Of a DNA stretch of 62,223 nucleotides, positions 9,410-26,721 are shown in pieces (position 1 is the stretch's first letter; every line of letters starts with the position of its first letter). A program made the translations under genes and the position numbers. The DNA is from Alphaproteobacteria bacterium MarineAlpha9_Bin6. GTDB lineage: Bacteria; Pseudomonadota; Alphaproteobacteria; UBA7887. The notes under the pieces were generated by a model. The model searched no databases, was not told where the DNA came from, and worked only from the letters and a program-made list of their open reading frames with translations. The DNA is taken from assembly GCA_002937585.1 (NCBI GenBank), contig PTKE01000004.1:1-62223 (forward strand), written 5' to 3'.

Positions 9410-10375
9410 ATGACTGCGTTAATTGAAGTTGGCTCGGTGTCAAAGCAATTTGGCTCCATACGGGCGGTTGACTCTGTTTCGTTCACGGTCAATCGCGGTG
9501 AAGTCCTGGGATTTCTTGGTCCGAATGGTGCCGGAAAGTCCACTACAATGCGCATTATTACAGGGTTTTTAACGCCAACGTCAGGTAGCGCTAGCGTTTG
9601 CGGGTATGACTTGGCGGAGGAGGGCATTGCAGCACGTGCGCGGCTAGGCTATTTGCCCGAGGGGTCGCCACTCTATGGGGAAATGACGGCTCTTGAATTC
9701 CTTCGGTTCACGGCAAGTGTGCGTGGTTTGTCGACATCCAAGGTTGCCGAACGGATCAAATGGGTAGTGGGGCAGCTCGGACTAGGCCCCGTGTTAGCGC
9801 AGCCAATTGAAACCCTTTCCAAAGGTTTCAAGCGCCGGGTAGGACTCGCGCAATCCGTGCTTCACGATCCTGATGTTTTGATTCTTGATGAACCGACCGA
9901 TGGTCTGGATCCTAATCAAAAACATGAGGTCCGCGGTCTTATTCGGACCATGTCTGCGCATAAGGCAATTATTATATCGACTCATTTGCTAGAAGAAGTT
10001 GACGCGGTATGTACACGTGCCATGGTCATCAATCACGGAAAAGTCATTGTAGATTGTACGCCGGACGAGCTGGCTTCCATGTCGCGTTATCGGAATGCAG
10101 TGACAGTATGTGCAAGCACGTCCAGTGGTGGTGACTTGCGGGTTACCCTGGAGGGTTTGGCTGGGGTCTCCAGTGTTGAGCATGTGCCAAAGGCAACCGT
10201 TAGCAACCGCTTCATTGCATTTCCTAAGGATGGAAAGTCAATTGTTGGTGAGGTCACTCGCCATTTGCAAGAAAAGGGTTGGGAAATTGAAGAACTTGAA
10301 GTCGATGGTGGGCGTCTCGATGAAGTTTTCCGTGACTTGACCACTACTGGGAGCGCTAAGAAGCCCCTTCATTAA
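9410..10375 (+). CDS. ABC transporter ATP-binding protein (ABC-2 / GldA-like)
   Basis: Walker A is GPNGAGKST, the signature is LSKGFKRRV and Walker B is VLILDEPTDGLD. The protein is 321 aa with a C-terminal extension. AAGGGAGAG lies upstream. Confidence 0.9.
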   Translation: MTALIEVGSVSKQFGSIRAVDSVSFTVNRGEVLGFLGPNGAGKSTTMRIITGFLTPTSGSASVCGYDLAEEGIAARARLGYLPEGSPLYGEMTALEFLRFTASVRGLSTSKVAERIKWVVGQLGLGPVLAQPIETLSKGFKRRVGLAQSVLHDPDVLILDEPTDGLDPNQKHEVRGLIRTMSAHKAIIISTHLLEEVDAVCTRAMVINHGKVIVDCTPDELASMSRYRNAVTVCASTSSGGDLRVTLEGLAGVSSVEHVPKATVSNRFIAFPKDGKSIVGEVTRHLQEKGWEIEELEVDGGRLDEVFRDLTTTGSAKKPLH

Positions 10376-10391
10376 GGCCAGCGGCATTAAA

Positions 10392-11126
10392 ATGATTCAG
10401 ATTCTGAGTATCTTTCGACGTGAGTTTTCTGGTTATTTTTCCACACCGATCGCGTATGTATTTATCGTCATTTTTCTTTTCCTGAACTGTATCTTCACGT
10501 TTTTTCTTGGTGATATCTACGCTCGAGGACAGGCTGATTTGGAGCCCTTTTTCACATGGCACCCTTGGCTTTATCTTTTTCTTGTGCCTGCCCTTGCGAT
10601 GCGCCTTTGGTCCGAAGAAAGGCGAGTTGGCACAGTAGAACTGCTTATGACACTTCCGGTTACAGTGTGGCAGGCGGTTCTGGGGAAATACCTTGCAGCT
10701 TGGGCGTTTACCGGTATTGCGTTAATGCTGACGTTTCCGGTTTGGATCACCGTCAATTATCTCGGAGATCCGGACAACGGCGTCGTTATCGCTGCCTACA
10801 TCGGCAGTTTCCTGATGGCAGGCGCCTATTTGGCTATTGGGGCTTGCATCTCAGCGTTAACAAAGAACCAGGTTATTGCGTTCGTTGTTGCGGTAGTCGT
10901 TTGCTTCCTTTTTACTATTACCGGTCTGCCAATGGTCACCAACCTATTCAGTTCTTGGGCGCCACAAGCCGTTATCGAAACGATTAGCTCGCTTAGCTTT
11001 GTTACCAACTTTCAGAATATTTCCCGGGGTGTCATTGATGCCCGGAATTTAGTTTACTTTGCTTCATTGATAGTGTTCTGGCTGTTTGTTAACACGCTAG
11101 TTGTTGGCAACCGTGACGGGGCGTGA
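10392..11126 (+). CDS. ABC-2 family permease (GldF-like)
   Basis: The ORF is 244 aa with about 6 hydrophobic helices. It starts 16 nt after the ATPase stop. Confidence 0.8.
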   Translation: MIQILSIFRREFSGYFSTPIAYVFIVIFLFLNCIFTFFLGDIYARGQADLEPFFTWHPWLYLFLVPALAMRLWSEERRVGTVELLMTLPVTVWQAVLGKYLAAWAFTGIALMLTFPVWITVNYLGDPDNGVVIAAYIGSFLMAGAYLAIGACISALTKNQVIAFVVAVVVCFLFTITGLPMVTNLFSSWAPQAVIETISSLSFVTNFQNISRGVIDARNLVYFASLIVFWLFVNTLVVGNRDGA

Positions 11127-11138
11127 GGGAGCAATTTG

Positions 11139-13079
11139 ATGAGCAATAAGCGAGGTAACAATAGAACTCTTTTTACAGGCGTGGCCTTAGCGCTCGGAGT
11201 TCTGCTTCTGATTTCGGTAAATTTGCTCGGCAACAGCGCATTTCGTAATCTTAGAGTGGACCTTACCGAAGACAAACTATTCACTTTATCAGATGGCACA
11301 GAGGGTTTGCTGCATACTCTTGAGGAACCTTTACTTCTTCGTTTGTATTTCAATCAAAATCTTGCCAACGAATTTCCCGCCATACGAGATTACGCGCGCC
11401 GAGTACGTGATGTATTGGCCGAATATGTGGCTGCGTCTAATGGAATGATCACGTTCGAAGTCATGAACCCAGAGCCGTTTTCTGATACCGAGGATGATGC
11501 GGCCGGTTTTGGCTTGCAAGGTGTGCCCGTGGACGCCGCAGGTGATCGCCTGTATTTTGGTTTAGTAGGCACTAATACGGTAGATGAACAATCGGTGATC
11601 GAGTTTTTCAGGCAGGAACGTGAGCCTTTTCTTGAATATGATTTGACCAGGCTTATTTATGAAATCTCGACAGCCAGAAAGCCCGTTGTTGGAGTGATTT
11701 CCTCATTGCCGGTCTACGGCGGGCCAGGGAATCCTCGAGCTGGTGAACCAGCGTTTAAGCCGCCCTGGGCCGTAATCACCCAGCTTGAACAGATTTTTGA
11801 AATGCGCCAAATCAATTTAGATGCTGGTCCTGTTGACGACGACGTCAACATTTTGTTGCTGATTCATCCGAGCAACTTGTCCGGTGTCTCACGTTATGAA
11901 ATAGACCAGTTTGTGCTCAATGGTGGTCGAGCGCTGATTTTCGTCGATCCATTATCCGAGGAAAGCGCCAAGACTCCAGATCCTGAGAATCCCTTGGCCC
12001 CAAAAAGTTCGGCATTACCTGATCTGTTCAAGGCATGGGGTATGGAAATAGTGCCCGGTATGTTGGTTGCGGATGCACGCGCCGCGCAACGGGTTCAAAC
12101 GTCTGAGCAAGGCCGAACCGTGGTTGTTCCTTATCTACCTTGGCTGTCGCTAGAAGCACCAAATTTTAACCCAGAAGAAGTTGCGACCAGTCAACTTGGG
12201 CGTCTCAATATGAGAAGCGCTGGACGTCTAGAGCCTGTCGAGGAATCGGAAGTTGAATTCATACCGCTGATTCAAAGCTCACCGGAATCTATGATGCTCG
12301 AGCGATTCTATGTTCAATTTGGCGGCAATCCGACAGCGCTTTTAGATAGGTTTGAGGCGCAGGGAATCCCATATACGCTTGCGGTTCGACTAAATGGAAA
12401 TGTGTCGTCGGCTTTTCCCAATGGACCGCTCAAGGCTGAAACTAGTGCCGGCGGGAGTGACGCGGGGTCCGAGCCTCTAGGCGAAGTGCCGGAAGGTCAT
12501 ATTTCTCAATCTGTGGAGCCTATAAACGTTGTTGTGGTCAGTGACAGTGACATGCTGGTCGATAGCACGTGGGTGCAGACCCAACGATTTCTGGGTCGAA
12601 CTCTAACTCTGCCGGTTGCCGACAATGGGGCTTTTGTTGCTAATGTTCTTGAGTTGTTAGGAGGCGGCGCAGACTTGATCGGTTTGCGCACGCGTGGCAC
12701 CGGACAACGGCCATTCAAGGTGGTTGATGATCTGCAAAGAGAAGCCGAGGCGCTCTTCCGGGAGACTGAAAATGGTTTGCAGCAGCGGCTTGAAGAGACT
12801 GAGAAGAAGCTGTCTGAAATGCGGTCTGGAGGCGGTGTTAATTTAGAAATGCTCTCCGAAGAAGAAGAGGCTACGATTGCAGCTTTCCAAAAGGATCTGA
12901 TCAGCATCAGAAAGCAATTGCGAGATGTACGTCATGAGTTGCGCAAGGACATCGAAGGATTGGGGACGATTTTAAAGGCTATAAACATTGGAGTCATCCC
13001 GATCATGGTCGGCATAATTGCAGTTTTTGTATCTTTGCTTCGACGACGCTATCGCCGACGTGCACTCGCAATGCAGTAG
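11139..13079 (+). CDS. GldG-like ABC-transport auxiliary component (ABC_transp_aux architecture)
   Basis: The track start is TTG 11136. ATG 11139 lies 7 nt after GAGGGAG. N- and C-terminal TM anchors (LFTGVALALGVLLLISV; GVIPIMVGIIAVFVSLL) flank a soluble domain of about 580 aa. The position directly after the ABC-2 permease matches gldA-F-G type clusters. Confidence 0.7.
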   Translation: MSNKRGNNRTLFTGVALALGVLLLISVNLLGNSAFRNLRVDLTEDKLFTLSDGTEGLLHTLEEPLLLRLYFNQNLANEFPAIRDYARRVRDVLAEYVAASNGMITFEVMNPEPFSDTEDDAAGFGLQGVPVDAAGDRLYFGLVGTNTVDEQSVIEFFRQEREPFLEYDLTRLIYEISTARKPVVGVISSLPVYGGPGNPRAGEPAFKPPWAVITQLEQIFEMRQINLDAGPVDDDVNILLLIHPSNLSGVSRYEIDQFVLNGGRALIFVDPLSEESAKTPDPENPLAPKSSALPDLFKAWGMEIVPGMLVADARAAQRVQTSEQGRTVVVPYLPWLSLEAPNFNPEEVATSQLGRLNMRSAGRLEPVEESEVEFIPLIQSSPESMMLERFYVQFGGNPTALLDRFEAQGIPYTLAVRLNGNVSSAFPNGPLKAETSAGGSDAGSEPLGEVPEGHISQSVEPINVVVVSDSDMLVDSTWVQTQRFLGRTLTLPVADNGAFVANVLELLGGGADLIGLRTRGTGQRPFKVVDDLQREAEALFRETENGLQQRLEETEKKLSEMRSGGGVNLEMLSEEEEATIAAFQKDLISIRKQLRDVRHELRKDIEGLGTILKAINIGVIPIMVGIIAVFVSLLRRRYRRRALAMQ

Positions 13080-13128
13080 TGCGAGCTTGTAGCGAATAAA
13101 TAGACTCCACAGGACATGATGAGAGGCC

Positions 13129-14271
13129 ATGAAGCGAAATAGTTTAATAGGGCTCGCAATAGCTGCGGCAGTGGTAGTTGTGCTGGCGGTTATGGTTGCA
13201 CAGCAACGAACCTCTGAAACAAAACCTGCCGGTGGTGGCGGACTTATGTTTGAAGGTCTGATAGGAAAAGTCAACTCGGTTGCATCGATCGAGGTCAATA
13301 ACGGTGACGAGGTCTTTACCATTACTCGTAAAGCCCAAAGTTGGGGAGTTGCTGAGAAATCTGACTATCCCGTTCAATTTGATTTGGTAAAAAAGACAAT
13401 TATGGGGGTTGCAGAGCTAGAACTTATCGCAGCGAAAACCAAAGATCCTGATCGACATGGAGCGCTTTTGTTAAACACACCAGAAGCGGAGGAGGGTGGA
13501 TCGATCGGTCTCGTCTTGGCCGATGACACGGGCGCCACCTTAGCGAGCTTGTTGGTCGGGAAGACTGTGCGTGCCGGGGGAGAACGTCGGTATGTTCGCC
13601 GCCGGAACGAAGATCAGACTTGGTTGGGTAGTGGTGGCATTGATGTGGGTAAAACACCACTGGACTGGATAGAAATCATACTTACTCAAATTCGCCATGA
13701 TCGGGTTCGGAAAATTACGCTCAGCCATCCGGATGGAGACCATGCTGTGCTGGAGCGAATGGAGCAGTCCGACTTTGATTTTACTTATATGGAAATTCCA
13801 GATGGCATGCGGGCACTTGCGCCAAGTAAACTTAACTCGGTCGGTGGGGCACTAGCGTTTCTGAGCATGAAAGACGTGCGGCTGGCCTCCGACATGAATT
13901 TCGATCCAACGGACGCAAGTGTTACTCGGTTTGAGACCTGGGATGGAGTAGTAGTAACGGTGTCCACCATCGAGGCAGACGAAAAAAAATGGGCGCGGTT
14001 TGAGGTTGAATTTGATGAATCTCTCGTTTTGGAGACAGTCCCTTCGGCAGCATCTGATGTTGATGAATCTGCGGAGGGGACAGAAGAAGTCGAGGATCCA
14101 CACGCTGTTGCGCGTGAAGAAGCAGGTACCATAAGTACTCGAACGCGTGGCTGGGCCTATGCTCTTGACGACCACAAGATGGACCAGCTTCGCAAGCGCA
14201 GTGAAGATTTTATCGAACCTGATTTACCGGATGAGGCAGATGGGTCCGAGGATTTGACCACAAACCAGTAG
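13129..14271 (+). CDS. Membrane-anchored protein, probably DUF4340 family
   Basis: The ORF is 380 aa with an N-terminal anchor (LIGLAIAAAVVVVLAVMVA) and an acidic tail. It is the fourth gene after a GldG-like protein, the usual position of DUF4340. The family assignment is from recalled context, not a search. Confidence 0.5.
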   Translation: MKRNSLIGLAIAAAVVVVLAVMVAQQRTSETKPAGGGGLMFEGLIGKVNSVASIEVNNGDEVFTITRKAQSWGVAEKSDYPVQFDLVKKTIMGVAELELIAAKTKDPDRHGALLLNTPEAEEGGSIGLVLADDTGATLASLLVGKTVRAGGERRYVRRRNEDQTWLGSGGIDVGKTPLDWIEIILTQIRHDRVRKITLSHPDGDHAVLERMEQSDFDFTYMEIPDGMRALAPSKLNSVGGALAFLSMKDVRLASDMNFDPTDASVTRFETWDGVVVTVSTIEADEKKWARFEVEFDESLVLETVPSAASDVDESAEGTEEVEDPHAVAREEAGTISTRTRGWAYALDDHKMDQLRKRSEDFIEPDLPDEADGSEDLTTNQ

Positions 14272-14287: not shown

Positions 14288-15175
14288 TTACTTGTTTTCT
14301 TCAGGTCCAAGCATAGCCGATCCTAAAGAACGCGGATCCCGCACTTCCCAGCGCCCATTGTCCACCGTTGTGATAAAAGCGTGGAGCACACTATTGAAGA
14401 CGTCAGGTTCTTCAAGGTTTATCGTGTGGCCGCTTCGTGGAAGTATGCTTAAACCAGCGCTCGGAATGGCACGCTTCAAGTAAAGCGCTGGCTCGAGGCA
14501 GGGTTCATCCTCGTCTCCGGTTACAATTAATGTGGGCACATATAGTTTTGTGAGTTGGCCTTCTAGATCGTACAGTGACGGCCGAGTTTTTTGATATCCG
14601 CGCATTGTATTAGCGGCGCCGGTTGCGGAATGTTGTCCTAGTTGAGTTTTGAACTCAGCCCATCCACGGGGGTTTTTGTTTTGAAACTGAACCCGAGTGC
14701 TTGACAACGAGTAGAAATCTGCAACGGCCACTGAGCCGTTGTTGTCATATTGAAGAGCTACTTTTTCGGCCTCACTCAAAAATTGCTCGCGATTGCCTTT
14801 GTCGGCACCATATCCACAACCCGTCACTGCAAGGCTGATCGCGCGCTCGGGGTGGCGCAGGCCGAAATGTAGGGTCGCAAAGCCTCCCATGGAAAGGCCA
14901 ACTATATGCGCTTTGTCGATCCCTAAGTGATCAAGAACGTTAACTGCGTCGTCAGCCTGATTTTCTTGGTTGTAGTCTGAAATATTGGCTGGAATATCTG
15001 ATGGTGGGTAACCGCGAGCGTTGTAACAGACACAACGATAACGGGTTGAGAAATATCGCATCTGAGGTTCCCAACTACGATGGTCGCCAGCAAATTCGTG
15101 AAGAAAAATGATCTCTGTCCCGGTTCCTGCCTCCTCGTAGTAAAGTTTAACCCCGTTTGAATTCGCATACGGCAT
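14288..15175 (-). CDS. Alpha/beta-fold hydrolase
   Basis: The track ORF extends to 15253. ATG 15175 has GGGAGGAG upstream and gives MPYANSNGVKLYYEEAG. The sequence has IIFLHEFAGD, the nucleophile elbow GLSMGG and a C-terminal SGH. Confidence 0.85.
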   Translation of the reverse strand: MPYANSNGVKLYYEEAGTGTEIIFLHEFAGDHRSWEPQMRYFSTRYRCVCYNARGYPPSDIPANISDYNQENQADDAVNVLDHLGIDKAHIVGLSMGGFATLHFGLRHPERAISLAVTGCGYGADKGNREQFLSEAEKVALQYDNNGSVAVADFYSLSSTRVQFQNKNPRGWAEFKTQLGQHSATGAANTMRGYQKTRPSLYDLEGQLTKLYVPTLIVTGDEDEPCLEPALYLKRAIPSAGLSILPRSGHTINLEEPDVFNSVLHAFITTVDNGRWEVRDPRSLGSAMLGPEENK

Positions 15176-15249
15176 GATTTGTTCTCCTCCCTTTTCCGCT
15201 AGGTTTTGAAGCGATACGTTACGGTAATAGTCCGAGATTGGACAACAGT

Positions 15250-15813
15250 TCAAAACAGAAAAAACTGTTTCTTAGTTATGGTGAGAGGCCATCGTCCAAC
15301 TTGGAATAACGCGAACTTCAGTTTTGCTGGGTGATGTGCAACAGTTTCCGTTAGCATGCTCAGAGCAGTGTCAAAAGCCGCCTCTGAAAATGCGCCGACT
15401 GCAGCCTTGGCAATTGAAATGTCGCCCGGGTTAGCGTGCTGGGCCGTTTCCAATGCAATATTGGCGGCTACCGAAATCGCTTTGAAGGAGTCTTCAAGAA
15501 GGGTTGCGCAACCGCCTGGCTTGTGTAGTTCATCGGCCTGGCGCCGAAGGTTATGCCGTTCAGTGATCTGCGCTGCGAGGAGTTCACGGTCCCAGCCCAA
15601 GTCACGGGCGGCACGACGAGCTCCGTCCCAACCAGGGACCGGTTCAATTCTTGTATTTCCCCTGTGGACGCTCCGTAAATACTGTTGAGCAAGTTGCTCC
15701 GTATGGCTATCAACCTCCATGCCAAGTTGGGTAAACCAGATACTATCTGTTAAGGATGTGAGAAAGCACGTAAATCGGGTTGAATGGCTAAATTGAGGGG
15801 CTGGGATGCTCAC
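15250..15813 (-). CDS. Hypothetical all-helical protein, translationally coupled to the di-iron oxygenase gene
   Basis: The ORF is 187 aa. Its GTG start overlaps the upstream stop (GTGA at 15810-15813). I recognise no family motif. Confidence 0.6.
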   Translation of the reverse strand: MSIPAPQFSHSTRFTCFLTSLTDSIWFTQLGMEVDSHTEQLAQQYLRSVHRGNTRIEPVPGWDGARRAARDLGWDRELLAAQITERHNLRRQADELHKPGGCATLLEDSFKAISVAANIALETAQHANPGDISIAKAAVGAFSEAAFDTALSMLTETVAHHPAKLKFALFQVGRWPLTITKKQFFLF

Positions 15814-16514
15814 GCGGGCGCTAAATCTGGCAGCCGCATTCCTAGTTCCTCAACAACTTTATGCGCTTGTGTTAGATAGTCGGCACGCATTTCTTCGTTC
15901 TTGCGTTGTTTGATTCCCCATTTCCGAAAAATCTCATTGTTGCGCGATTTGGGTCTCCCAAAAAAAGCTGGAAGCATTGGGAAATACTGGTCAATGGCAT
16001 CTTGAACGTCTCGTTGGCCCTGCTCTGTCTGGCATAGTTCTGCGCAGAAATCTTTACCGAACTTGGCGTGGAACCGTTCCTCGGGCATGGTCATGCGGGC
16101 TAGTTTTCGCAATGGATGGAAACTGCATTGGATCAAATCCTCTACTTGGAGGATTTCGGCTAGATCGGCCAATAGCTTAATCACGCAGAATTCTGCCCAA
16201 CTTTTTAGTGGGAACTCAAAAATCGACAACGGTTTTTTGGTTGCTGGCGACATGTCATGTAACTCGATACCCAGTTCTGTGCCAAGATCTTTGAAGCGAA
16301 CATGGTGTCCATATTCCTCCATTGCTACCCGGCATGTCAGCCACTTGGCGTAGGGGTCGGGAGCCAGCGCAATTGCCGGTTCGTCAAAAACCTGTGCACC
16401 ATAGAGTTCGTTGACAGCGTGGCTGATCACAATTTTTCGAACGGCTCCCTGGAATTCTTCTGGCATAGCACGAAACTCTTCAATAGTTTTCACCTGCTGT
16501 TGTGTAGCCATCAT
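15810..16514 (-). CDS. Ferritin-like di-iron carboxylate oxygenase, PaaA/BoxB-like
   Basis: The ORF is 234 aa. The full ligand set is visible: NELYG, MEEYGHH (ExxH), ADLAEILQVEDL and PEERFHAKFG (ExxH). FEFPLKSWAEF...SFHPLRKLARMTMPEERFH resembles the FNxPxxxWxD...SSYxPxARxxxKIxKEExxH region of PaaA as I recall it. AGGAG lies upstream. Confidence 0.6.
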   Translation of the reverse strand: MMATQQQVKTIEEFRAMPEEFQGAVRKIVISHAVNELYGAQVFDEPAIALAPDPYAKWLTCRVAMEEYGHHVRFKDLGTELGIELHDMSPATKKPLSIFEFPLKSWAEFCVIKLLADLAEILQVEDLIQCSFHPLRKLARMTMPEERFHAKFGKDFCAELCQTEQGQRDVQDAIDQYFPMLPAFFGRPKSRNNEIFRKWGIKQRKNEEMRADYLTQAHKVVEELGMRLPDLAPA

Positions 16515-16520
16515 GCACTC

Positions 16521-17453
16521 CTAGATCACAGGTTCTGTGTTGAAGGCTTCAAGGTCGGTCTCGAGAGCCGTGAAGCTTGACTTAAGGTCTTCATCAACTG
16601 CTACGGCCAAAGTATCCACCGACCAATCAGTCTCAGTGTTCACCGTTCGAGCCTTTGGTCGTGGCTGGTTAAAAATAAAAACCTCGCGTCCGCGTACGGC
16701 AAAAAGCTGGCCGGATACATGCTGCGCCTTTTCGTCACACAAATATGTGACGAAGGTTGCAACGTGGTCTGCCGGCAGGCGTAAAGCACGCGCTTTGTAC
16801 TTTGCTTGAGATTCATTGGCTGGCTGAATGGTTTCTGTTACTCGGGTGGTGGCGAATGGCGCTACCGCGTTACACGTGATCCCGGCCCTGGCCATATCTA
16901 GCGCAACTGCCCGAGTTAGCCCCAAAAGTCCAGCTTTTGCACTAGCGTATGTTGCTTGTCCGAAGTTGCCATAAAACCCAGCAGTTGAGGTGATATTTAC
17001 AATGCGTCCGTTTCTATAGTCTTTGTTAGCCTTGCTTTGCGCACGTAGCAACGGTGTTGCAGCAGCTAGCAAGTAATAAGCTGCTGAGAGATTAGTCTCA
17101 ATTACCGAGTCCCAATCGGTCGGGTCTCCTTTAAAAATAAATGAGTCCCTCAGGATCGCTGCATTATTAACCACAATGTCGATACGTCCAAAAGAGTCGT
17201 TTGCGTAATCTACTAAAGCTTTGGCCGCTGTCGGTGAGGTTAAGCCTTCAGTAAATGCGATCGAAGATCCGCCGATTTTTTCTGCCGCTGTGTGACCTAT
17301 CGTCGGATCCGGCTCTGTGCCATCAATTGATACTCCGGAGTCAGCAATAACAACGTTTGCGCCCGCCTTAGACAAAGCGTTAGCGATTGACAGACCGATG
17401 CCTCGACCGGCTCCAGTGACAATCGCAACGCGCCCATGCAGTGATTTCGTCAT
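16521..17453 (-). CDS. SDR with C-terminal extension, MFE-2-type (3-hydroxyacyl-CoA dehydrogenase-like)
   Basis: The ORF is 310 aa with TGAGRGIG, NNAA and YASAK, plus about 60 extra C-terminal residues. The ATG overlaps the reductase stop (ATGA at 17450-17453), and AAGGAGA lies upstream. Confidence 0.8.
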   Translation of the reverse strand: MTKSLHGRVAIVTGAGRGIGLSIANALSKAGANVVIADSGVSIDGTEPDPTIGHTAAEKIGGSSIAFTEGLTSPTAAKALVDYANDSFGRIDIVVNNAAILRDSFIFKGDPTDWDSVIETNLSAAYYLLAAATPLLRAQSKANKDYRNGRIVNITSTAGFYGNFGQATYASAKAGLLGLTRAVALDMARAGITCNAVAPFATTRVTETIQPANESQAKYKARALRLPADHVATFVTYLCDEKAQHVSGQLFAVRGREVFIFNQPRPKARTVNTETDWSVDTLAVAVDEDLKSSFTALETDLEAFNTEPVI

Positions 17454-18478
17454 TCTCCTTGGTCCAGTATGGCCTTTTCAGCCTCTGTGTAAAACGCGTC
17501 AGCGTGGCAGTCTTCGCGTCGAATACCAAGTAATTGGAACTTCTCCACTGCCATTTCAACCATCGCTGGCGGGCCTGCAATATACGCTTTGCAGCCATCC
17601 AGGTCATCAAAATCGGAGAGTACTGCATCAGTCACCAGGCCACTCCGATACTTAACTTGCTCTGATGGCTCGGACAAAACCGGCGTAAAGGTCAGGCTAG
17701 GATAATCCGTCGCCAATAGTTCAAGGGCATCGGTCATGTACAAGTCACGTTCATCCCTAACTCCTAAATAGAGATAAATGCTTTGCTTCATTCCAATTTG
17801 AAGTGCACTACCGACAATTGATTTTATAGGGGCTAAGCCAGTCGAGCCAGCGACTGCCAAAATGGGCCCGCGATGCAGTTTGCGCAAATAAGATACGCCG
17901 TAGGGACCTTCGACATTGACTCTGTCACCAACCTTAAGTTGATCTAGGATGTGGTCACTAACTTTTCCACCTGTTATGCGGCGAATATGAAACTCGAGAC
18001 GGTCTTCATCTGCACGGTTGGCCATCGAAAAATCACGCGGTGGTAGGCCAGAGAAGGTAAGCGCCGCATACTGCCCAGGGGAAAAACTAAAAGGACCTCC
18101 TCCGATCACATCGATTTGAATTACCCGGATGTCGTGAGTAGCTTCCGTAATGCGGCCAATTTTGCAGTCCATTACCCGATGGGGATGTGCGACGACCTCG
18201 TCTTGGTCCAGAGGGGCAATCTCACAATCGGTGAGCGGTACTGAGCGGCAGGCGAGAACCAATCCTTGGTCTCGCTCCGAGGTTTCCAATGCAAATTCGG
18301 AATAAGGAGCCAAGTCTACCTTGCCGGTAAATAGGCGTGATTTGCAGGCTCCGCAATTTCCCGATTGACAGCCGCACGGGTAGTCAATTTTTGCCGCCAA
18401 AGCAGCGTCAAGTATTGTCTGGCCATCGGCTACTTCCAGCTCTATGTCAAATGTACGAAAATGAACTTTGTGGGTCAC
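17450..18478 (-). CDS. 2Fe-2S ferredoxin-FAD/NAD(P) reductase (DmpP/MmoC/AscD-type oxygenase reductase)
   Basis: The ORF is 342 aa. The N-terminal plant-type cluster is CQSGNCGAC...ACRS. The FAD motif is RDFSMA and the NAD motif is GSTGLAP. The start is GTG. Confidence 0.85.
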   Translation of the reverse strand: MTHKVHFRTFDIELEVADGQTILDAALAAKIDYPCGCQSGNCGACKSRLFTGKVDLAPYSEFALETSERDQGLVLACRSVPLTDCEIAPLDQDEVVAHPHRVMDCKIGRITEATHDIRVIQIDVIGGGPFSFSPGQYAALTFSGLPPRDFSMANRADEDRLEFHIRRITGGKVSDHILDQLKVGDRVNVEGPYGVSYLRKLHRGPILAVAGSTGLAPIKSIVGSALQIGMKQSIYLYLGVRDERDLYMTDALELLATDYPSLTFTPVLSEPSEQVKYRSGLVTDAVLSDFDDLDGCKAYIAGPPAMVEMAVEKFQLLGIRREDCHADAFYTEAEKAILDQGE

Positions 18479-18626
18479 GGATTAACGGTTCCAGTTATTG
18501 AGTCTGGGTACTTTGTGCACTAACGCCCCTTGTAGTTCAATACAAGCTTCGCCCGAAGTTTACTGGACACCCTTGGGCTCGAACTCGTACAGTTCCAGCT
18601 ATAATCAAAAGCCTGAGTTTGAGCCA
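18479..18626. promoter_or_regulatory. Divergent control region between the reductase operon and the gentisate operon
   Basis: This is a 148-bp gap between divergent starts. A perfect TATAAT sits at 18600-18605, 21 nt upstream of ATG 18627. I could not identify a convincing -35 element or operator. Confidence 0.3.
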
Positions 18627-19682
18627 ATGAGCAAAGCTAGCCAGCAAATCGACGTCCGAGAAAAATTTTATCAGGACATTGACGGCTATAATATGGCCCC
18701 GTTATGGGAAGTTTATCGTACCTTGATTACGCCTAGTCCAAGGACACCCGCGGTGCCGCATTGTTGGCACTACGATGATGTGCGCGATTGGGTGCTACGT
18801 GCTGGTGACGTAATCAGTGCGCGCGAGGCGGAACGTCGGGTTCTGGTGCTTGAAAATCCAGGTTTACGGGGGCAGACGAGAATCACTAATTCGCTGTATG
18901 CTGGCCTGCAACTGATCTTGCCTGGTGAGGTCGCGCCAAGTCACCGCCATAGCCAATCAGCGTTACGTTTTATTATTGAGGGGGCTGGTGCATATACTGC
19001 GGTGGACGGAGAACGTGCCTATATGGCCCGTGGGGATCTGATCCTTACCCCTCCTATGACTTGGCACGACCATGGTAGTCATGGAAAAGGTCCCACTGTG
19101 TGGCTTGATGGCCTCGATATTCCCATCATCCAAACATTCGATGCGAGTTTTCTTGAGGGATTCCCTGAGGAAAGCCAACCTTCTACCCGGTTACCCGGAG
19201 ATAGCCACGCGCGGTATGGTCGTAACATGCGTCCATTTGGTGCGGCGCCGAAGAATGCTTCGTCCCCAGTATTCTCTTACCCGTATGCGGATTACCGGGA
19301 AGCTCTAGAGAAAATGCGTGTGCAGGAAGACTGGGATTCTTGTCACGGCCTCAAAATGACTTTTATCAATCCACAGACGGGTGGTCCGGTGATGCCGACG
19401 ATTGCCGCATTCGTGCAACTTCTACCAAAGGCTTTCAGCACTTCCCCATATCGCTCTACGGACGGCACCATCTATACAGTGGTCGATGGTGAGGGTCGCG
19501 CTCGTGTAGGAGACAAGGACTTCCAGTTGACCCCCAGTGACATTTTTGTTGTGCCTAGTTGGTGTTCTCTGCAGCTGGAAGCCAAAGAGGATCTGGTATT
19601 ATTTAGCTTCTCTGATAGGAGTGCGCAGGAGAAGCTTTGCCTGTGGCGCGAGCAGCGAGGCGATGACGGAGATACGTTATGA
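18627..19682 (+). CDS. Gentisate 1,2-dioxygenase (bicupin)
   Basis: The track ORF begins at 18498, but MSKASQQIDVREKFYQDIDGYNMAPLWEV at 18627 gives the usual length of about 350 aa. It has the cupin metal motif APSHRHSQSALRFIIEG...WHDH and a second cupin near the C-terminus. Confidence 0.85.
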   Translation: MSKASQQIDVREKFYQDIDGYNMAPLWEVYRTLITPSPRTPAVPHCWHYDDVRDWVLRAGDVISAREAERRVLVLENPGLRGQTRITNSLYAGLQLILPGEVAPSHRHSQSALRFIIEGAGAYTAVDGERAYMARGDLILTPPMTWHDHGSHGKGPTVWLDGLDIPIIQTFDASFLEGFPEESQPSTRLPGDSHARYGRNMRPFGAAPKNASSPVFSYPYADYREALEKMRVQEDWDSCHGLKMTFINPQTGGPVMPTIAAFVQLLPKAFSTSPYRSTDGTIYTVVDGEGRARVGDKDFQLTPSDIFVVPSWCSLQLEAKEDLVLFSFSDRSAQEKLCLWREQRGDDGDTL

Positions 19683-20389
19683 GCGAAGATAGATATAACA
19701 GTGATTACGTTATTTCGATATGGGATCAGCCGTCGATAGCAGTCGCGGGCGGTGCCGCGTATCCGGTGCGCCATATCTATTGTGTGGGTCGTAATTACGC
19801 GGAACACGCTCGTGAAATGGGCACTGATCCGGAGCGGGAGGCACCATTTTTTTTTATGAAAGCAGCAGATAGCATTGTGCCAAGTGGTGCCCGGATTAAA
19901 TATCCACCTCGAACACAGGATCTCCACCACGAGGTTGAGTTAGTGGTTGCCATCGGGGCAAGTGGCGCTGATATTGCACGCTCCGATGCGTCCGACCATA
20001 TCTTCGGTTACGCTGTGGGTGTCGACTTGACTCGACGCGACCTCCAACAAGCGATGAAGGCGAAAGGTCGACCCTGGGAGATCGGAAAGTCGTTTGCTCA
20101 GGCGGCTCCGGTTGGTGAAATTCAGCCGGCTTGGAATATTGGTCATCCGCGCGAGGGGAAGATAAGTCTCTTGGTTAATGGAGAGATTCGCCAAGAAGCC
20201 GATCTAAAGGAGATGATTTGGGATGTTGACGAGGTGATTGCTGAGCTATCTACATATTACAAACTGGAGCCCGGGGATCTTGTTTTTACCGGCACGCCGG
20301 CGGGCGTTGCGGCAGTAATCCGTGGTGACAGTGTCAACTGCACTATCGATGCGCTTGAACCATTGGATTTCTCGATCTCGGCCGTCTGA
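19679..20389 (+). CDS. Fumarylacetoacetate hydrolase family enzyme (fumarylpyruvate or maleylpyruvate hydrolase candidate)
   Basis: The ORF is 236 aa with HHEVELVVAIG, DLTRRDLQ and KGRPWEIGKSF. Its ATG overlaps the dioxygenase stop (ATGA). Confidence 0.85.
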   Translation: MSEDRYNSDYVISIWDQPSIAVAGGAAYPVRHIYCVGRNYAEHAREMGTDPEREAPFFFMKAADSIVPSGARIKYPPRTQDLHHEVELVVAIGASGADIARSDASDHIFGYAVGVDLTRRDLQQAMKAKGRPWEIGKSFAQAAPVGEIQPAWNIGHPREGKISLLVNGEIRQEADLKEMIWDVDEVIAELSTYYKLEPGDLVFTGTPAGVAAVIRGDSVNCTIDALEPLDFSISAV

Positions 20390-20427
20390 ATTTCTGTATG
20401 GCGATCGATCTACTAACTTTACTTTTG

Positions 20428-20838
20428 TCAGCCAAACAAAACCTTAACTTCGTCCGGAATAATGCCAGCGCGGATCGCTCCGTCATCTTTTCGGGTTCCC
20501 CATATGCGTGTCTCGAAACCGGACGCAACTTTTGTATCGTCACAAGTAAATTCGTGTCTTAACCGAAAGCTTTTGCGGCTCCATTGGTCGACTTGACTCG
20601 TTACTGTCAGCTTGTCTCCCATGCGGGCAGGTGCCACGAAGGTTGCGCCCGTGTCAACCAATGGCCCGCCGAATACGCCAAAGCGACGATTAAGGGCTTC
20701 AAGTGTCAAATTCTGGCTCTCAAAAAGTAACCAAAACCCTCGGTCCATCCAGCGATAAAAATTAGGATAGAATACGATTCCGGCTGGGTCACAATCCCCC
20801 CAATCGACTCGGATTGAATAACGGTTCACTATGGCCAT
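20428..20838 (-). CDS. 4HBT/YbgC-type hotdog acyl-CoA thioesterase
   Basis: The track ORF extends to 20976. MAIVNRYSIRVDWGDCDPAGIVFYPNFYRWMD at 20838 gives the usual length of about 136 aa, with the catalytic Asp context DxDxxGxV. Confidence 0.8.
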   Translation of the reverse strand: MAIVNRYSIRVDWGDCDPAGIVFYPNFYRWMDRGFWLLFESQNLTLEALNRRFGVFGGPLVDTGATFVAPARMGDKLTVTSQVDQWSRKSFRLRHEFTCDDTKVASGFETRIWGTRKDDGAIRAGIIPDEVKVLFG

Positions 20839-21073: not shown

Positions 21074-22243
21074 ATGCGGAGTTGGTATGTCGCGTGGATA
21101 GCGGGACTAGGCTTGGCCGCAGTGGCCCAAGCTGAAGAGACGATTAAGATAGGTGTCGTGCTGCCGTATTCGGGTGTCTATGCTTCGCTAGGTGGCGACA
21201 TCACCGACGGCATGCAGTTAGCATTTGATCTATATGGCTCAGAAATTGCGGGCAGAAAAATCGTTCTCATTACCGAGGATTCTGAAGTCAAACCCAACGT
21301 AGGCCTCACCAAGACGAAGAAGTTGGTATTTCAAGATAAGGTTGACCTTTTAGTGGGGCCGGTGGCTTCTAACGTTGCCGGGGCGATGCGTGATTTCGTG
21401 CACAACGCCAAAATTCCACTGATTATTCCAAATGCCGGGAATAATTTGCTGACCGGAGAAAAATGCAGTCCGTGGGTAATTCGAACCTCCTTTTCTAACG
21501 ACCAGATCAATCGGGTAATGGGCCCTTGGCTCTACGAACAGGGGCACCGCACCTTATACCTTATGGCGGCTGACTATTCTGCCGGTCATCAAATGATGGA
21601 GGCAGTTAGGAGAGGCTTCACTGAGGCTGGCGGAGAAATTGTCGGGGAGGAATATCCGCCACTTCGAGAAACAAAGGACTTTGCCCCCTACCTAGCTAAG
21701 GTCAAAGCTATCCGGCCAGATGCCTTGTATGTGTTTTTTGCGGGCGGTTTGGCCATTCAATTTGTAAAACAATATCAGGATTTTGGGCTCAAGGGTGAGA
21801 TACCATTGACCGGTGCCGGCTGGCTGACGTCGCCTTTGTTCCTGCCGGCCCAGGGTACGGCTGCAACGGGCTTTATTGGTGCGCTCAACTATGTCCCAAC
21901 AATCGATTCTGAGGAAAACAGGGCATTTCAGGCTGCATTCAGTGAAAAACATCAGCGAACTGCTTCGGAGTTCACGGTGCAAGGTTTTGATACCGGCCGT
22001 CTAATAGTAGAAGCGCTCAAGCTTACGAGCGGGAAGACGGCTGACAAGGCAGCTTTGGTGGAGGCAATTCACCGGGTACATTTTACCAGTCCGCGCGGGC
22101 CCTTCCGCATAGATCCGGCTACCAACAACGTAATTCAGGATATCTACATATTTGAGATGCGGCAGACAGGCTACGATATCCGTCATGTGGTGATCGATAA
22201 AATAGCTGATGTCCAGGATCCTCCGAACGGCTGCAAAATGTAG
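21074..22243 (+). CDS. Periplasmic substrate-binding protein, Leu/Ile/Val-binding (LivK/J) family
   Basis: The ORF is 389 aa with signal peptide MRSWYVAWIAGLGLAAVAQA followed by ETIKIGVVLPYSGVYASLG. GGAGG lies 9 nt upstream. Confidence 0.85.
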   Translation: MRSWYVAWIAGLGLAAVAQAEETIKIGVVLPYSGVYASLGGDITDGMQLAFDLYGSEIAGRKIVLITEDSEVKPNVGLTKTKKLVFQDKVDLLVGPVASNVAGAMRDFVHNAKIPLIIPNAGNNLLTGEKCSPWVIRTSFSNDQINRVMGPWLYEQGHRTLYLMAADYSAGHQMMEAVRRGFTEAGGEIVGEEYPPLRETKDFAPYLAKVKAIRPDALYVFFAGGLAIQFVKQYQDFGLKGEIPLTGAGWLTSPLFLPAQGTAATGFIGALNYVPTIDSEENRAFQAAFSEKHQRTASEFTVQGFDTGRLIVEALKLTSGKTADKAALVEAIHRVHFTSPRGPFRIDPATNNVIQDIYIFEMRQTGYDIRHVVIDKIADVQDPPNGCKM

Positions 22244-22260
22244 CGGCCGAAGCCTTTCGG

Positions 22261-23136
22261 ATGTTTTTCGAGCCGACCTTCCTTGCCATTCAATTTCTCA
22301 ATGGGTTGCAGCTCGCTAGCCTGTTGTTTCTGCTTTCGGTTGGGTTATCCGTAGTATACGGGTTGATGAATTTCATCAATCTAGCCCATGGAACGCTGTA
22401 CATGTTGGGCGCATATATCGGGCTTACAGTGGCTCGAGAAAGCGGATCCTTTTGGCTCGCTCTCGTCGGAGCTCCCCTCGCCATCGCAGCTTTAGGGGCG
22501 CTTTTTCACGTCCTGTTATTGCGGCGTATGCAGGCTGCAAGCCCGATGAAGCAGGTTCTAGTGACTTTCGGTCTAATCTTTATCGGTCTGGACGTGGTTC
22601 GTTATATCTGGGGTGATTTCACCCATTCGATCGAGACGCCGGCCATTTTCTCAGGATCGGTGCAGTTGTTAGGGGAGGTGTATCCAAGTTATCGACTATT
22701 CGTGATTGGGCTAGGCTTGTTTGTCTTTGTCGCTCTTTATCTCGGTCTTGAACGTACCCGTCTCGGTGCAGTAGTGCGCGCTGGGGTCGATGATAGAGAG
22801 GTTGCGATGTCACTTGGTCTTAATATTGAACTGGCGTTTTTTATTGTGTTCTGTCTGGGTTGCGGGCTGGCTGGGCTGGCTGGTGTAATAGCGGCTCCGG
22901 TTCTGTCGGTGTATCCCGGTATGGACATGTCGATACTAGTGTTGACCTTGATTGTGGTTGTCATAGGAGGGCCCGGAAGCCTAAAGGGAGCGGCATTAGG
23001 TGCTTTTCTGATCGGAATGTTTGAGACGTTCGGTCAGGTATTTATGCCCGCTCTGGCGAGCGTAATTATTTATGCGTTGATGGCGGTCGTTCTTTTAGTT
23101 CGTCCCGGTGGTTTGCTGCCGGTGCGACCTGGTTAA
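22261..23136 (+). CDS. LivH-type ABC permease
   Basis: The ORF is a 291-aa polytopic membrane protein with NLAHGTLYMLGAY at the N-terminus, typical of LivH. Confidence 0.85.
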   Translation: MFFEPTFLAIQFLNGLQLASLLFLLSVGLSVVYGLMNFINLAHGTLYMLGAYIGLTVARESGSFWLALVGAPLAIAALGALFHVLLLRRMQAASPMKQVLVTFGLIFIGLDVVRYIWGDFTHSIETPAIFSGSVQLLGEVYPSYRLFVIGLGLFVFVALYLGLERTRLGAVVRAGVDDREVAMSLGLNIELAFFIVFCLGCGLAGLAGVIAAPVLSVYPGMDMSILVLTLIVVVIGGPGSLKGAALGAFLIGMFETFGQVFMPALASVIIYALMAVVLLVRPGGLLPVRPG

Positions 23137-23144
23137 AGACGCTG

Positions 23145-24107
23145 ATGATAAAAAAAAGGGCGCTAGCCAATCGTGATATTGCTGCCTGTATTCTGTTGTT
23201 GATAGCAATAATCGCGTGGTTTCGCGCCGACATTTTTGGTCATGAGTTGCTTGCGCAGATCTCGATCTTAGCGATCTTTGCGATGAGCCTTGATCTCTTA
23301 ACCGGCTATACAGGGCTGGTGTCATTAGGTCACGCCGCTTTTTACGGTGTAGGTGCATATGCGACCGCGGGTCTTGCCGCCCTGGCAGGTTGGCCAATGT
23401 GGGCCGTGATGCCGACAGCGATGCTGTTATCGGCGTTGCTGGCGGTTTTTGCCGGTGTTTTTGCAGTACGTCTGGTCGGTGTATTTTTCATTATGATTAC
23501 ACTTGCAATCGGTGAAATGGTTCACGCCTTCGCTTTTCGCAGTCGTGTCTTTGGCGGCGATGATGGTCTTGGCGGAGTGCCGCGCATAAATTTCGATGCG
23601 GTTGGTATAAATTTGTTAGACCCTGCGCAATTTTCTTTGTTCACATTGATTGTTGCGGCGTTGGTATATTTTGTGGCCGCTCATTTGGTGGATTCCCCCT
23701 TCGGGAGAGTGTTGGTTGGCATCCACCAGAACGAATCAAGGATGCGCGCGCTCGGATGTCCTGTGAGACATTACAAACTGGCAGCATTTGTCCTAGCCGC
23801 CTCATTCGCTGGTTTGGCGGGGTCGCTCGCTGCCCAGCATAATAATTTTGTTTCGCCAGAATTATTGACCTGGACTACGTCCGGTGAGGCATTAATTGTA
23901 GTAATCATTGGTGGTATTGGCAGTTTAGTCGGCCCTGCAGCAGGTGCGGCCGTATTCGTTATGCTCGCCCATCACCTAAGCGGTATCACTGATTACTGGA
24001 TGTTTTTTATGGGCTTGTTTTTTGTTGCCGTGGTGTTGTTTGGTGGCGATGGACTTTACGGTTTGATAGGGCGCATGCGCCGAGCATTAACACATGCTCG
24101 TCGTTGA
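23145..24107 (+). CDS. LivM-type ABC permease
   Basis: The ORF is a 320-aa polytopic protein with TGYTGLVSLGHAAFYGVGAY, typical of LivM. Confidence 0.85.
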   Translation: MIKKRALANRDIAACILLLIAIIAWFRADIFGHELLAQISILAIFAMSLDLLTGYTGLVSLGHAAFYGVGAYATAGLAALAGWPMWAVMPTAMLLSALLAVFAGVFAVRLVGVFFIMITLAIGEMVHAFAFRSRVFGGDDGLGGVPRINFDAVGINLLDPAQFSLFTLIVAALVYFVAAHLVDSPFGRVLVGIHQNESRMRALGCPVRHYKLAAFVLAASFAGLAGSLAAQHNNFVSPELLTWTTSGEALIVVIIGGIGSLVGPAAGAAVFVMLAHHLSGITDYWMFFMGLFFVAVVLFGGDGLYGLIGRMRRALTHARR

Positions 24108-24831
24108 AAAACTCAACAAGGCATTCGGTGCACTGCAAGTAACGTGCGATATCTCACTTCACGTTGAGCCAGGTGCTCGTCACGCACTGATTGGCCCCAA
24201 CGGTGCTGGAAAGACCACGTTGTTTAATCTTTTGACAGGGGAGATCAGGGCAGATTCCGGAAGCATAACGTTGGCCGGAAAGGATCTCACGCGTGCGCGT
24301 CCAGATATTCGTGCTCGCTTAGGCATGGCGCGTTCTTATCAGCAAAACAACTTATTTGCAGATCTGACTGTGACCCAAAATCTGGTGACAGCGCTTGTGG
24401 TGGCGCGTGGGTATGGCCTCCGCTTATGGCAGCGTCTCTCTGACAGGAATGAGCTCGCACTAGGCGCTGTCGAGATTGCAGAACTAATTGGTTTAGCCGA
24501 TGTCCTAGATGAGCCTGCCCATCGACTTGCCTATGGCATGAAACGCCAATTAGAGGTCGGGTTAGCCCTGGCTGTGGAGCCAAAACTTCTATTGCTTGAT
24601 GAGCCCACAGCAGGAATGAGCCCCGATGAGACTAAGCTCATGCTCACGCTAATAGGCAGTCTGCCTCCAACCTTAACGGTGTTGATCATCGAGCATGATA
24701 TGGACGTCGTGTTCAAATTTGCTGAACGGATCACTGTTCTCGATGAAGGCGCAGTGCTATTTGAAGGTTCACCGGATGAGGTTCATTGCTCCGACGTTGT
24801 GCGTGCCCGATATCTCAAGCTTGCAACATGA
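24094..24831 (+). CDS. LivG-type ABC ATPase
   Basis: Walker A is GPNGAGKTT and Walker B is LLLLDEPTAGM. It overlaps the permease gene by 14 nt. Confidence 0.9.
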   Translation: MLVVEKLNKAFGALQVTCDISLHVEPGARHALIGPNGAGKTTLFNLLTGEIRADSGSITLAGKDLTRARPDIRARLGMARSYQQNNLFADLTVTQNLVTALVVARGYGLRLWQRLSDRNELALGAVEIAELIGLADVLDEPAHRLAYGMKRQLEVGLALAVEPKLLLLDEPTAGMSPDETKLMLTLIGSLPPTLTVLIIEHDMDVVFKFAERITVLDEGAVLFEGSPDEVHCSDVVRARYLKLAT

Positions 24832-25562: not shown

Positions 25563-26021
25563 ATGAAGAAAATATATTTTGAGGATTTCAGGGTTGGCCA
25601 AGTAATCGAACTTGGTTCTTGCACGGTCAGCAAGGATGAAATCATCGCGTTTGCTCGCAAGTTCGACCCGCAGCCCTTTCATATTGACGAAGCTGCTGCG
25701 GAGCGCAGTATTTATGGTGGTTTGATTGCGAGTGGTTGGCACACCGGATCCCTATTTATGCGTCTTCTCTACGACGGGTTGTTATCGCATGCTGCCAGCA
25801 TGGGTTCGCCAGGTCAGGATGAACTACGCTGGATCAAACCGGTCCGACCTGGTGATACACTGAGTGCGCGTGGTTTGGTGGAGGAATTGATTCCGTCTCG
25901 CTCCAAACCCGACCGAGGTCTGATCCGGACTACATATGAAGTATTTAACCAAGATGGAGACAAGGTGATGATGGTGCGTGGCCTTGGCATGTTTGGCAAA
26001 CGTCCGACGAAAGAGGTGTGA
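25563..26021 (+). CDS. MaoC-like hotdog (R-specific enoyl-CoA hydratase/acyl dehydratase) protein
   Basis: The ORF is 152 aa, with [32 protein letters not shown] as the MaoC dehydratase signature region. Confidence 0.8.
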
Positions 26022-26712: not shown

Positions 26713-26721
26713 CAGGTTGTC

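Follow-up and report, generated by a model that had tools for sequence, protein, structure and literature searches.

Gentisate cleavage genes and a divergent PaaA-like di-iron oxygenase operon in a marine alphaproteobacterium: a possible CoA-dependent route to gentisate

Gentisate is a central intermediate of aromatic-acid breakdown, and the gentisate-forming enzymes known to us are Rieske or flavin hydroxylases. On a stretch of 62,223 nucleotides from Alphaproteobacteria bacterium MarineAlpha9_Bin6 (GenBank assembly GCA_002937585.1, contig PTKE01000004.1, forward strand; contig C51 of this genome, hereafter called the window), the genes of a gentisate 1,2-dioxygenase (GDO) and an FAH-family hydrolase (FAH) diverge from an operon encoding a reductase (RED), a short-chain dehydrogenase/reductase (SDR), a PaaA-like di-iron oxygenase subunit (DIFE), a 187-aa protein (UNK187) and an alpha/beta-fold hydrolase. 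This locus raises the question of how the gentisate is formed. A sequence-only reading had proposed that the di-iron system, together with a 4HBT-type thioesterase (TE) encoded nearby, supplies gentisate via a coenzyme A (CoA) thioester. In this study, we compared the locus with its relatives and searched the genome for competing enzymes. From the results we consider it rather probable that the two divergent operons form one catabolic unit, namely a CoA-dependent di-iron route leading via gentisyl-CoA into the gentisate pathway.

The source genome comprises 2.38 Mb in 116 contigs and is estimated to be 98.6% complete. The nearest relatives of the locus were found in metagenome-assembled marine Rhodospirillaceae-like Alphaproteobacteria, and at least 10 studies have yielded marine metagenomes that contain near-identical DNA. 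For comparison, the best 80 matches to the di-iron protein of the window were examined, and genes were labelled by means of the window's own proteins. A subset of 44 loci with at least 4.5 kb upstream and at least 5.5 kb downstream was used as the full-flank set.

Gene order in related loci and the search for gentisate-forming enzymes

The neighbourhood comparison proposed along with the sequence-only reading placed GDO next to the di-iron gene in 38 of the 44 full-flank loci, so the adjacency of the two goes beyond chance. In the same set, RED was present in all 44 loci, SDR adjoined the di-iron gene in 43, as it also does in a sister clade, and a homologue of UNK187 was found in 37. A CoA-synthetase-like gene (COALIG) was detected in 35 loci, FAH in 27 and TE in 13; either the synthetase-like gene or the thioesterase gene was present in 38. 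The usual order in relatives is RED-SDR-DIFE-GDO-UNK-(FAH)-(xth)-COALIG, and in most operons GDO is directly flanked by the di-iron gene on one side and the gene of the predicted partner, UNK187, on the other. The window represents a rearranged version common to its nearest relatives. In the cultured species Iodidimonas muriae (L082) the genes are arranged as RED-SDR-DIFE-GDO-UNK-FAH-COALIG-MaiA, while a locus from another class (G067) has the order RED-SDR-DIFE-GDO-UNK-FAH-TE-MaiA, followed by a full-length ADP-forming acyl-CoA synthetase gene.

Close relatives of DIFE are encoded in at least 568 species genomes scanned, and more than 2000 database homologues share 70–99% identity, most of them automatically annotated as PaaA or PaaI. 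A phylum-wide sample of 400 genomes yielded just 3 further carriers; the module is rare among named species and common in metagenome-assembled genomes. A gene for exodeoxyribonuclease III (xth) separates FAH from COALIG in roughly half of the related loci, e.g. at 13110–13901 of L004, an odd but conserved presence of a DNA-repair gene within a catabolic operon. At L001/L034 (8921–12313) and L070, which may be remnants or a separate functional unit, RED, DIFE, FAH and xth occur with no SDR, UNK partner or GDO nearby. The product of this Exo_endo_phos gene was rejected as a pathway enzyme, as it matched exodeoxyribonuclease III (TIGR00195) with 187.8 bits at a cut-off of 182.55, and its place within the operon is probably retained synteny.

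No flavin or Rieske hydroxylase adjoins GDO in the window. Furthermore, no Rieske alpha subunit (PF00848) was found in the whole 98.6% complete genome, and its only genuine class-A flavin monooxygenase (PF01494) is a ubiquinone hydroxylase of the UbiH/Coq6 type (422 bits). The earlier statement that the window lacks a 3-hydroxybenzoate 6-hydroxylase and a Rieske salicylate 5-hydroxylase holds for the window and, as far as the assembly covers it, for the genome. A canonical hydroxylase elsewhere in the genome had been set beforehand as the case that would speak against the di-iron route; within an assembly of 98.6% completeness, the search for it came out negative.

The lower pathway could be followed by family models. 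GDO matched TIGR02272 with 529.5 bits (cut-off 442.1) over profile positions 3–336, i.e. as a full-length bicupin, and its closest solved structure is 2d40 (9.4e-115); the model for 5-aminosalicylate dioxygenase gave 247 bits at a cut-off of 650. FAH is nearer to 4maq (1.7e-76), itself a 'putative' fumarylpyruvate hydrolase, than to the maleylpyruvate hydrolase 6jvv (1e-22), which fits an isomerase-dependent route. The sequence-only reading had seen no maleylpyruvate isomerase. Beside GDO this is correct, as no adjoining isomerase gene was found in the window. It fails for the genome as a whole, since contig C62 carries, beside transporter genes and unlinked to the cluster, a gene for a MaiA equivalog of the glutathione-dependent type (TIGR01262; 296 bits, cut-off 171). 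Homogentisate dioxygenase was not found in the whole genome, and hence the usual client pathway of MaiA is absent. In addition, maiA orthologues are located inside the operon in 7 of the 80 loci and in G067, and the in-operon MaiA proteins of L082, L073 and L054 scored 283–291 bits with TIGR01262. Because of the C62 gene lacking a homogentisate dioxygenase client and the in-operon maiA of at least eight relatives, the pathway is not short of an isomerase, and the C62 protein is the candidate maleylpyruvate isomerase. The GDO, MaiA and FAH steps are putatively assigned through family-level equivalogs.

DinB-fold proteins include thiol-dependent maleylpyruvate isomerases. The window encodes a 271-aa glutaredoxin-DinB_2 fusion on the minus strand (43864–44679), which nothing links to the cluster. 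As a thiol-dependent isomerase this fusion was set aside, since its gene lies 23 kb away and has no link to the cluster.

The di-iron oxygenase, its predicted partner and the CoA-related genes

DIFE belongs to a distinct, tight clade in which 45 representatives fall below 1e-30, followed by a gap down to about 30% identity. With the PaaA model TIGR02156 it scored 98.7 bits, below the cut-off of 280, and its only characterised relatives are PaaA proteins (3pvr, 4iit; about 1e-17 to 1e-18). Six residues (E36, E67, H70, D117, E146 and H149) do not vary among 12 homologues and, in the alignment, fall within motifs also found in E. coli PaaA, where the corresponding residues are the iron ligands. 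RED consists of an N-terminal [2Fe-2S] ferredoxin domain followed by the FAD and NAD domains, which is the domain order of BenC and MmoC. The scores for these were 189 and 177 bits, both below the cut-offs, and that for PaaE was 120 bits at a cut-off of 421.

Except for BoxB, no second protein of the PaaA/PaaC family (PF05138-like) was found in the genome. BoxB (792 bits) is encoded together with BoxC (819 bits) and a divergent PaaK-like ligase on contig C84 (L010, G000:C84:12000-31000, 9318–13790), so that, beside the PaaA-like module, the same genome has a further di-iron aryl-CoA epoxidase pathway of the classical type, acting on benzoyl-CoA.

UNK187 matched no Pfam or NCBIfam family. Its homologues share 17–33% identity, so that the position is conserved and the sequence diverges fast, and no conserved acidic, His or Cys residue was seen among them. 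The AlphaFold2 (AF2) model (pLDDT 92.6) gave no Foldseek match at E < 0.001. VIA-align matched it to Rhs/polymorphic-toxin immunity proteins only (Z 11.0 and 9.9), scores in a range that can arise merely from a shared arrangement of helices, and the relatives in the atlas are all unnamed. When UNK187 was modelled in complex with DIFE, an ipSAE of 0.87 was obtained versus 0.00 for the best control; among solved complexes 58 of 80 attain this mark, among mismatched pairs 2 of 110. Three runs shared at least 98% of the contacts, and the pLDDT of the partner was at least 86. The modelled interface comprises DIFE residues 48–72, i.e. the helix with the invariant PYAKWLTCR...EEYGHH motif, together with the small number of residues that are conserved in UNK187. 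A review states that helices B and C of PaaA make the contact to PaaC (PMC9493321), and the predicted UNK187 site on DIFE overlaps this PaaC-binding face. UNK187 is predicted from the model to be a new structural or coupling partner replacing PaaC.

Since most relatives have its gene placed between those of GDO and FAH, UNK187 was also considered as a new maleylpyruvate isomerase. This was rejected in view of the lack of a conserved catalytic-type residue, a fold unlike DinB, glutathione S-transferase (GST) or any enzyme, the predicted binding to the oxygenase and the existence of a real maiA.

The genes surrounding the oxygenase have a CoA-related character. The closest solved relatives of the SDR are the yeast (3R)-hydroxyacyl-CoA dehydrogenase 2et6 (1.1e-68) and HSD17B4 (1gz6), and the catalytic motifs are retained, with TGxxxGxG, NNAA and S...YxxxK visible in the sequence. 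TE is closest to the 4-hydroxybenzoyl-CoA thioesterases 5wh9 (6.4e-20) and 1bvq (9.7e-18), followed by a 1,4-dihydroxy-2-naphthoyl-CoA hydrolase, and is a candidate gentisyl-CoA thioesterase. For the alpha/beta hydrolase, PcaD was the best NCBIfam match (99 bits, far below the cut-off of 255). A GLSMGG nucleophile motif is visible, and the true start is likely the ATG near 15175. This hydrolase gene is confined to the closest relatives (L018–L020), apart from a weaker match close to the cluster in G224, and does not belong to the conserved module.

CoA activation is represented in the operons of relatives by unrelated families. Most in-operon COALIG proteins resemble the alpha part of ADP-forming synthetases (TIGR02717, 368 bits, below cut-off), and the synthetase of G067 is a full alpha-beta fusion. 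L076 and L042 have genes of the benzoate-CoA ligase family in the same position, with the 3-hydroxybenzoate-CoA ligase HbdA as best match, well below cut-off, and in 7 loci a gene for a family III CoA-transferase lies beside that of the thioesterase. Judged by these families, the activating gene is swapped by non-orthologous replacement among relatives. Were a thioester not required, such an exchange at the same operon position would be difficult to account for. As an observation on its composition, the COALIG protein of most loci (465–481 aa; 13927–15372 in L004) is a complete alpha part, and no ATP-grasp beta part is present in the operon.

The genome-wide search for aryl-CoA ligases yielded candidates outside the window on contigs C47 and C78. 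C47 encodes a member of the benzoate-CoA ligase family (608 bits), and the 743-aa ADP-forming acyl-CoA synthetase on C78 is the best match of the genome to the in-operon synthetase of relatives. Further unlinked candidates are 17 other AMP-forming ligases and at least 12 family III CoA-transferases. The C47 gene (L102, 5372–8758), the only true member of the benzoate-CoA ligase family in the genome, is flanked by genes for a dienelactone hydrolase and a second alpha/beta hydrolase within a neighbourhood of housekeeping genes, and is a candidate activator for the Box or the gentisate route. With 18 AMP-forming ligases and at least 12 family III CoA-transferases, the metabolism of this genome is unusually CoA-centred for 2.4 Mb.

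Uptake systems provide hints on the substrate. The nearest solved structures to the LivK-type binding protein of the window are 4zpj, 4evq/4evr and 4ey3/4eyg/4eyk. The latter two groups are benzoate-derivative binders of Rhodopseudomonas palustris. The LivKHMGF-type system is a probable aromatic-acid importer on the basis of these likenesses. Importer and MaoC gene are syntenic with the cluster in L007, L008 and L020. In related clusters, a tripartite ATP-independent periplasmic (TRAP) transporter is often present. Its binding protein (modelled with pLDDT 86.6) is 53% identical, with a TM-score of 0.90–0.96, to proteins of marine-metagenome origin whose solved structures bear the title 'specific for aromatic acid ligands', and 42–44% identical to TarP proteins whose structures were determined with coumarate, ferulate, caffeate or cinnamate. 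Taken together, the likenesses of the binding proteins point to an aromatic carboxylate as substrate.

Proposed route and alternative explanations

In the route that we favour, the acid would be taken up by the LivK-type ABC system here and by the TRAP system in many relatives, and would be converted to the aryl-CoA by an unlinked enzyme here and by the product of an in-operon gene in relatives. RED would pass electrons from NAD(P)H to DIFE, complexed with UNK187, and the ring would be oxygenated. SDR would act on a ring hydroxy/oxo CoA-ester intermediate to give gentisyl-CoA, from which TE would release gentisate. GDO would open the ring to maleylpyruvate, the unlinked MaiA of C62 would isomerise this with glutathione, and FAH would cleave fumarylpyruvate to fumarate and pyruvate. 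The steps before GDO, the CoA esters, the role of SDR and the acid itself, for which benzoate and the 2-, 3- and 4-hydroxybenzoates are candidates, are inferred from gene context. The earlier proposal of a CoA thioester as the source of gentisate is supported, at the level of gene context, by the conserved operon, the CoA-type SDR, the likeness of TE, the three activating families in relatives and the absence of a canonical hydroxylase from the genome. The earlier reading as a whole holds in part, since two of the absences that it named, of an isomerase and of a CoA ligase, apply locally only.

Several points weigh against the proposed route. The function of the module is deduced through guilt by association throughout, and the 80 loci are best matches from related lineages, so their counts do not represent independent events. 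DIFE is 75 residues shorter than PaaA. No AMP-binding/AMP-forming ligase or CoA-transferase is encoded in the window, in agreement with what the sequence-only reading had conceded for CoA ligases, and an orthologue of the relatives' in-operon synthetase was not found in the genome, where the best match is 31–33% identical. Neither synthetase nor thioesterase is present in 6 of the 44 full-flank loci, GDO is not nearby in 6 of the 44, and a few loci (L001/L034, L070) retain no more than RED-DIFE-FAH. Short contigs assembled from four RNA libraries of marine or vent origin match parts of the two operons with about 99% identity, which is weak evidence in favour of the route; they cannot show induction, strand or operon structure, and DNA carry-over in these libraries is possible. 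Finally, the plain model leaves the SDR unexplained, as a one-step hydroxylation of hydroxybenzoyl-CoA needs no such enzyme.

The near-universal presence of the SDR suggests that the product of the oxygenase is perhaps dearomatised (an epoxide, dihydrodiol or quinol) and needs dehydrogenation, which, as a speculation, would allow benzoyl-CoA as substrate. A more specific and clearly more doubtful version is that RED, DIFE and UNK187 form a new two-subunit di-iron aryl-CoA oxygenase with a non-aromatic first product (epoxide or quinol), which SDR rearomatises; starting from benzoyl-CoA, or from 4-hydroxybenzoyl-CoA via an NIH-type shift, this would lead to gentisyl-CoA. If true, this would give the gentisate pathway a fourth entry, with a mechanism of its own, and would be the main way in which abundant uncultured marine and soil Alphaproteobacteria use benzoate-type acids.

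Alternatively, the di-iron system may be a new soluble equivalent, of the di-iron type, to NagGH or 3-hydroxybenzoate 6-hydroxylase (3HB6H) and form gentisate directly from the free acid by hydroxylating C5 of salicylate or C6 of 3-hydroxybenzoate, with the CoA genes serving other steps or substrates. The BenC/MmoC domain order of RED, typical of oxygenases acting on free substrates, would agree with this, as would the lack of a CoA-activating gene in the window and the closest relatives and the 6 of 44 loci with neither synthetase nor thioesterase. However, a CoA ester is the substrate of those relatives of the oxygenase that have been characterised, all of them PaaA proteins, the SDR, present in 43 of the 44 loci, is of the hydroxyacyl-CoA dehydrogenase type, 38 loci have a CoA-synthetase-like gene or an aryl-CoA thioesterase gene, and unrelated CoA-activating families interchange at the same operon position; we regard hydroxylation of the free acid as unlikely. 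A similarly low probability is assigned to a separation of the two gene groups, in which GDO, MaiA and FAH degrade gentisate that is imported or made by an unrecognised enzyme, and RED-SDR-DIFE-UNK, within one regulon with them, performs another oxidation that does not yield gentisate, for instance on a phenylpropanoid-type acid in the form of a dearomatised or side-chain CoA ester. SDR and the MaoC hydratase, acyl-CoA dehydrogenases and thiolases of the window would suit a beta-oxidative side-chain shortening, the related TRAP binding proteins are 42–44% identical to the hydroxycinnamate-binding TarP, and some loci keep RED-SDR-DIFE-UNK-COALIG without GDO. Nevertheless, neither hydratase nor thiolase is conserved within the module, no further candidate for a gentisate-forming enzyme is encoded in the genome, and the usual location of GDO, with the DIFE gene on one side and the UNK187 gene on the other, fits best with consecutive steps. 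That the two operons are unrelated neighbours placed side by side by accident would agree with the divergent transcription seen here in place of one operon, but GDO is nearby, usually in the same operon, in 38 of the 44 full-flank relatives, one of them from another class, and owing to this conservation an accidental adjacency can be excluded for practical purposes.

The CoA-dependent di-iron route via gentisyl-CoA, if true, would add to the PaaA/BoxB group a new type of enzyme with its own partner subunit and dehydrogenase, would correct the routine annotation 'phenylacetate-CoA oxygenase PaaA/PaaI' of more than 2000 database proteins and would explain the use of hydroxybenzoates by streamlined marine Alphaproteobacteria that lack the textbook hydroxylases. 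As Iodidimonas muriae JCM 17843 is a cultured strain with the complete eight-gene operon, the idea is directly testable.

Locus layout and comparison with known systems

The features of the locus are listed in Table 1. FAH is coupled to GDO by an ATGA overlap of its start codon with the GDO stop codon, and the GTG start of RED at 18478 forms the edge of the divergent gap; the ATGA coupling and the divergence across 148 bp had been described correctly. The minus-strand operon reads RED, SDR, DIFE, UNK187 and alpha/beta hydrolase, with 4-bp overlaps at three of the four junctions and a spacing of 6 bp between SDR and DIFE. TE converges on FAH, the alpha/beta hydrolase closes the opposite operon and the LivK-type importer follows, all as described before; the gap between TE and FAH is 38 bp. 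A sigma-70-like site (18564–18593) and a GTGCAC palindrome (18512–18523) in the divergent gap are both at chance level, and the scans of the region for promoters, terminators and inverted repeats gave nothing above chance. A MarR regulator gene is found upstream in 54 of the 80 loci.

Table 1 Features of the gentisate/di-iron oxygenase locus (positions refer to the window)
Feature	Position	Strand	Basis
Alpha/beta-fold serine hydrolase, last gene of the oxygenase operon	14288–15253	-	Abhydrolase_1 3.7e-23
187-aa protein without family (UNK187)	15250–15813	-	predicted non-catalytic partner of DIFE
PaaA-like di-iron oxygenase subunit (DIFE), PaaA/PaaC family, 234 aa	15810–16514	-	PF05138 1.5e-27
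SDR, 310 aa, MFE-2 / (3R)-hydroxyacyl-CoA dehydrogenase type	16521–17453	-	PRK07791 212 bits
Reductase (RED), Fer2-FAD-NAD	17450–18478	-	Fer2, FAD_binding_6, NAD_binding_1
Divergent intergenic region, 148 bp	18479–18626	.	read directly
Gentisate 1,2-dioxygenase (GDO)	18627–19682	+	TIGR02272 equivalog
FAH-family hydrolase (FAH), putative fumarylpyruvate hydrolase (NagK-like) kind	19679–20389	+	FAA_hydrolase 2.1e-56
4HBT (hotdog) thioesterase (TE), 136 aa	20428–20838	-	4HBT_2, 4HBT
LivKHMGF-type ABC importer	21074–25532	+	Peripla_BP_6 2.5e-83
MaoC-type (R)-hydratase, cluster membership uncertain	25563–26021	+	MaoC_dehydratas 2.2e-17

Directly after the MaoC gene, the minus strand (26095–28329) carries an alpha/beta hydrolase gene and, with two short open reading frames (ORFs) upstream, the gene of a nitrile hydratase alpha subunit. 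In L007, L008 and L020 the latter gene likewise keeps synteny with the gentisate cluster. Further on (28449–39312 and 45611–58566), the window encodes three acyl-CoA dehydrogenases, two thiolases, FadB-like and MaoC proteins and subunits of methylcrotonyl-CoA carboxylase.

No publications describing such a cluster were found within a partial coverage of the literature, and the combination of a short PaaA-like enzyme, a new partner and an obligatory SDR, joined to the gentisate pathway, appears to be undescribed. It can be compared with three known types of systems. With the phenylacetyl-CoA 1,2-epoxidase PaaABC(D)E of E. coli and Klebsiella (3pvr, 3pw8, 4iit) and the benzoyl-CoA 2,3-epoxidase BoxAB, it has the ferritin-like di-iron subunit in common. 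Judged by the sequences, likenesses to the Paa system are the six retained ligand columns, a dedicated NAD(P)H reductase and a probable CoA-ester substrate, and the model adds a non-catalytic partner predicted on the face of helix C, which is the PaaC site on PaaA (PMC9493321). In contrast to Paa, DIFE remains at 98.7 bits versus a PaaA cut-off of 280 and comprises 234 aa instead of about 310, PaaB, PaaC and PaaD are missing here and an unrelated 187-aa helical protein is the predicted partner. Moreover, the ferredoxin domain of RED is N-terminal, an SDR is always attached, and the downstream genes belong to the gentisate pathway and not to ring-opening hydrolases.

CoA-dependent routes to gentisate are represented by CehGHI of Rhizobium sp. 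X9 and PhgABC of Brevibacillus, the latter acting via 4-hydroxybenzoyl-CoA and an NIH shift, and to our knowledge the hydroxylases of such routes are flavoproteins. The salicylyl-CoA 5-hydroxylase SdgC of Streptomyces, with SdgA/B, is a further CoA-dependent gentisate route as cited in PMC13215587. The proposed route would follow the same logic of ligase, aryl-CoA hydroxylase, gentisyl-CoA, thioesterase or spontaneous hydrolysis and GDO, and a thioesterase of the hotdog type is present as well. It would differ in that the hydroxylase is a di-iron enzyme served by a separate reductase, with an additional SDR and a new partner protein, in a genome that has no such flavoprotein, and in the lack of a linked aryl-CoA ligase in the window. 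The lower pathway would correspond to nagIKL of Ralstonia sp. U2, which encodes GDO, a fumarylpyruvate hydrolase and a GSH-dependent isomerase, as seen from the GDO equivalog, the likeness of FAH and the zeta-GST MaiA. Here, in contrast, the isomerase gene is unlinked on C62 and found within the operon in relatives, and the upstream hydroxylase is not the Rieske enzyme NagGH.

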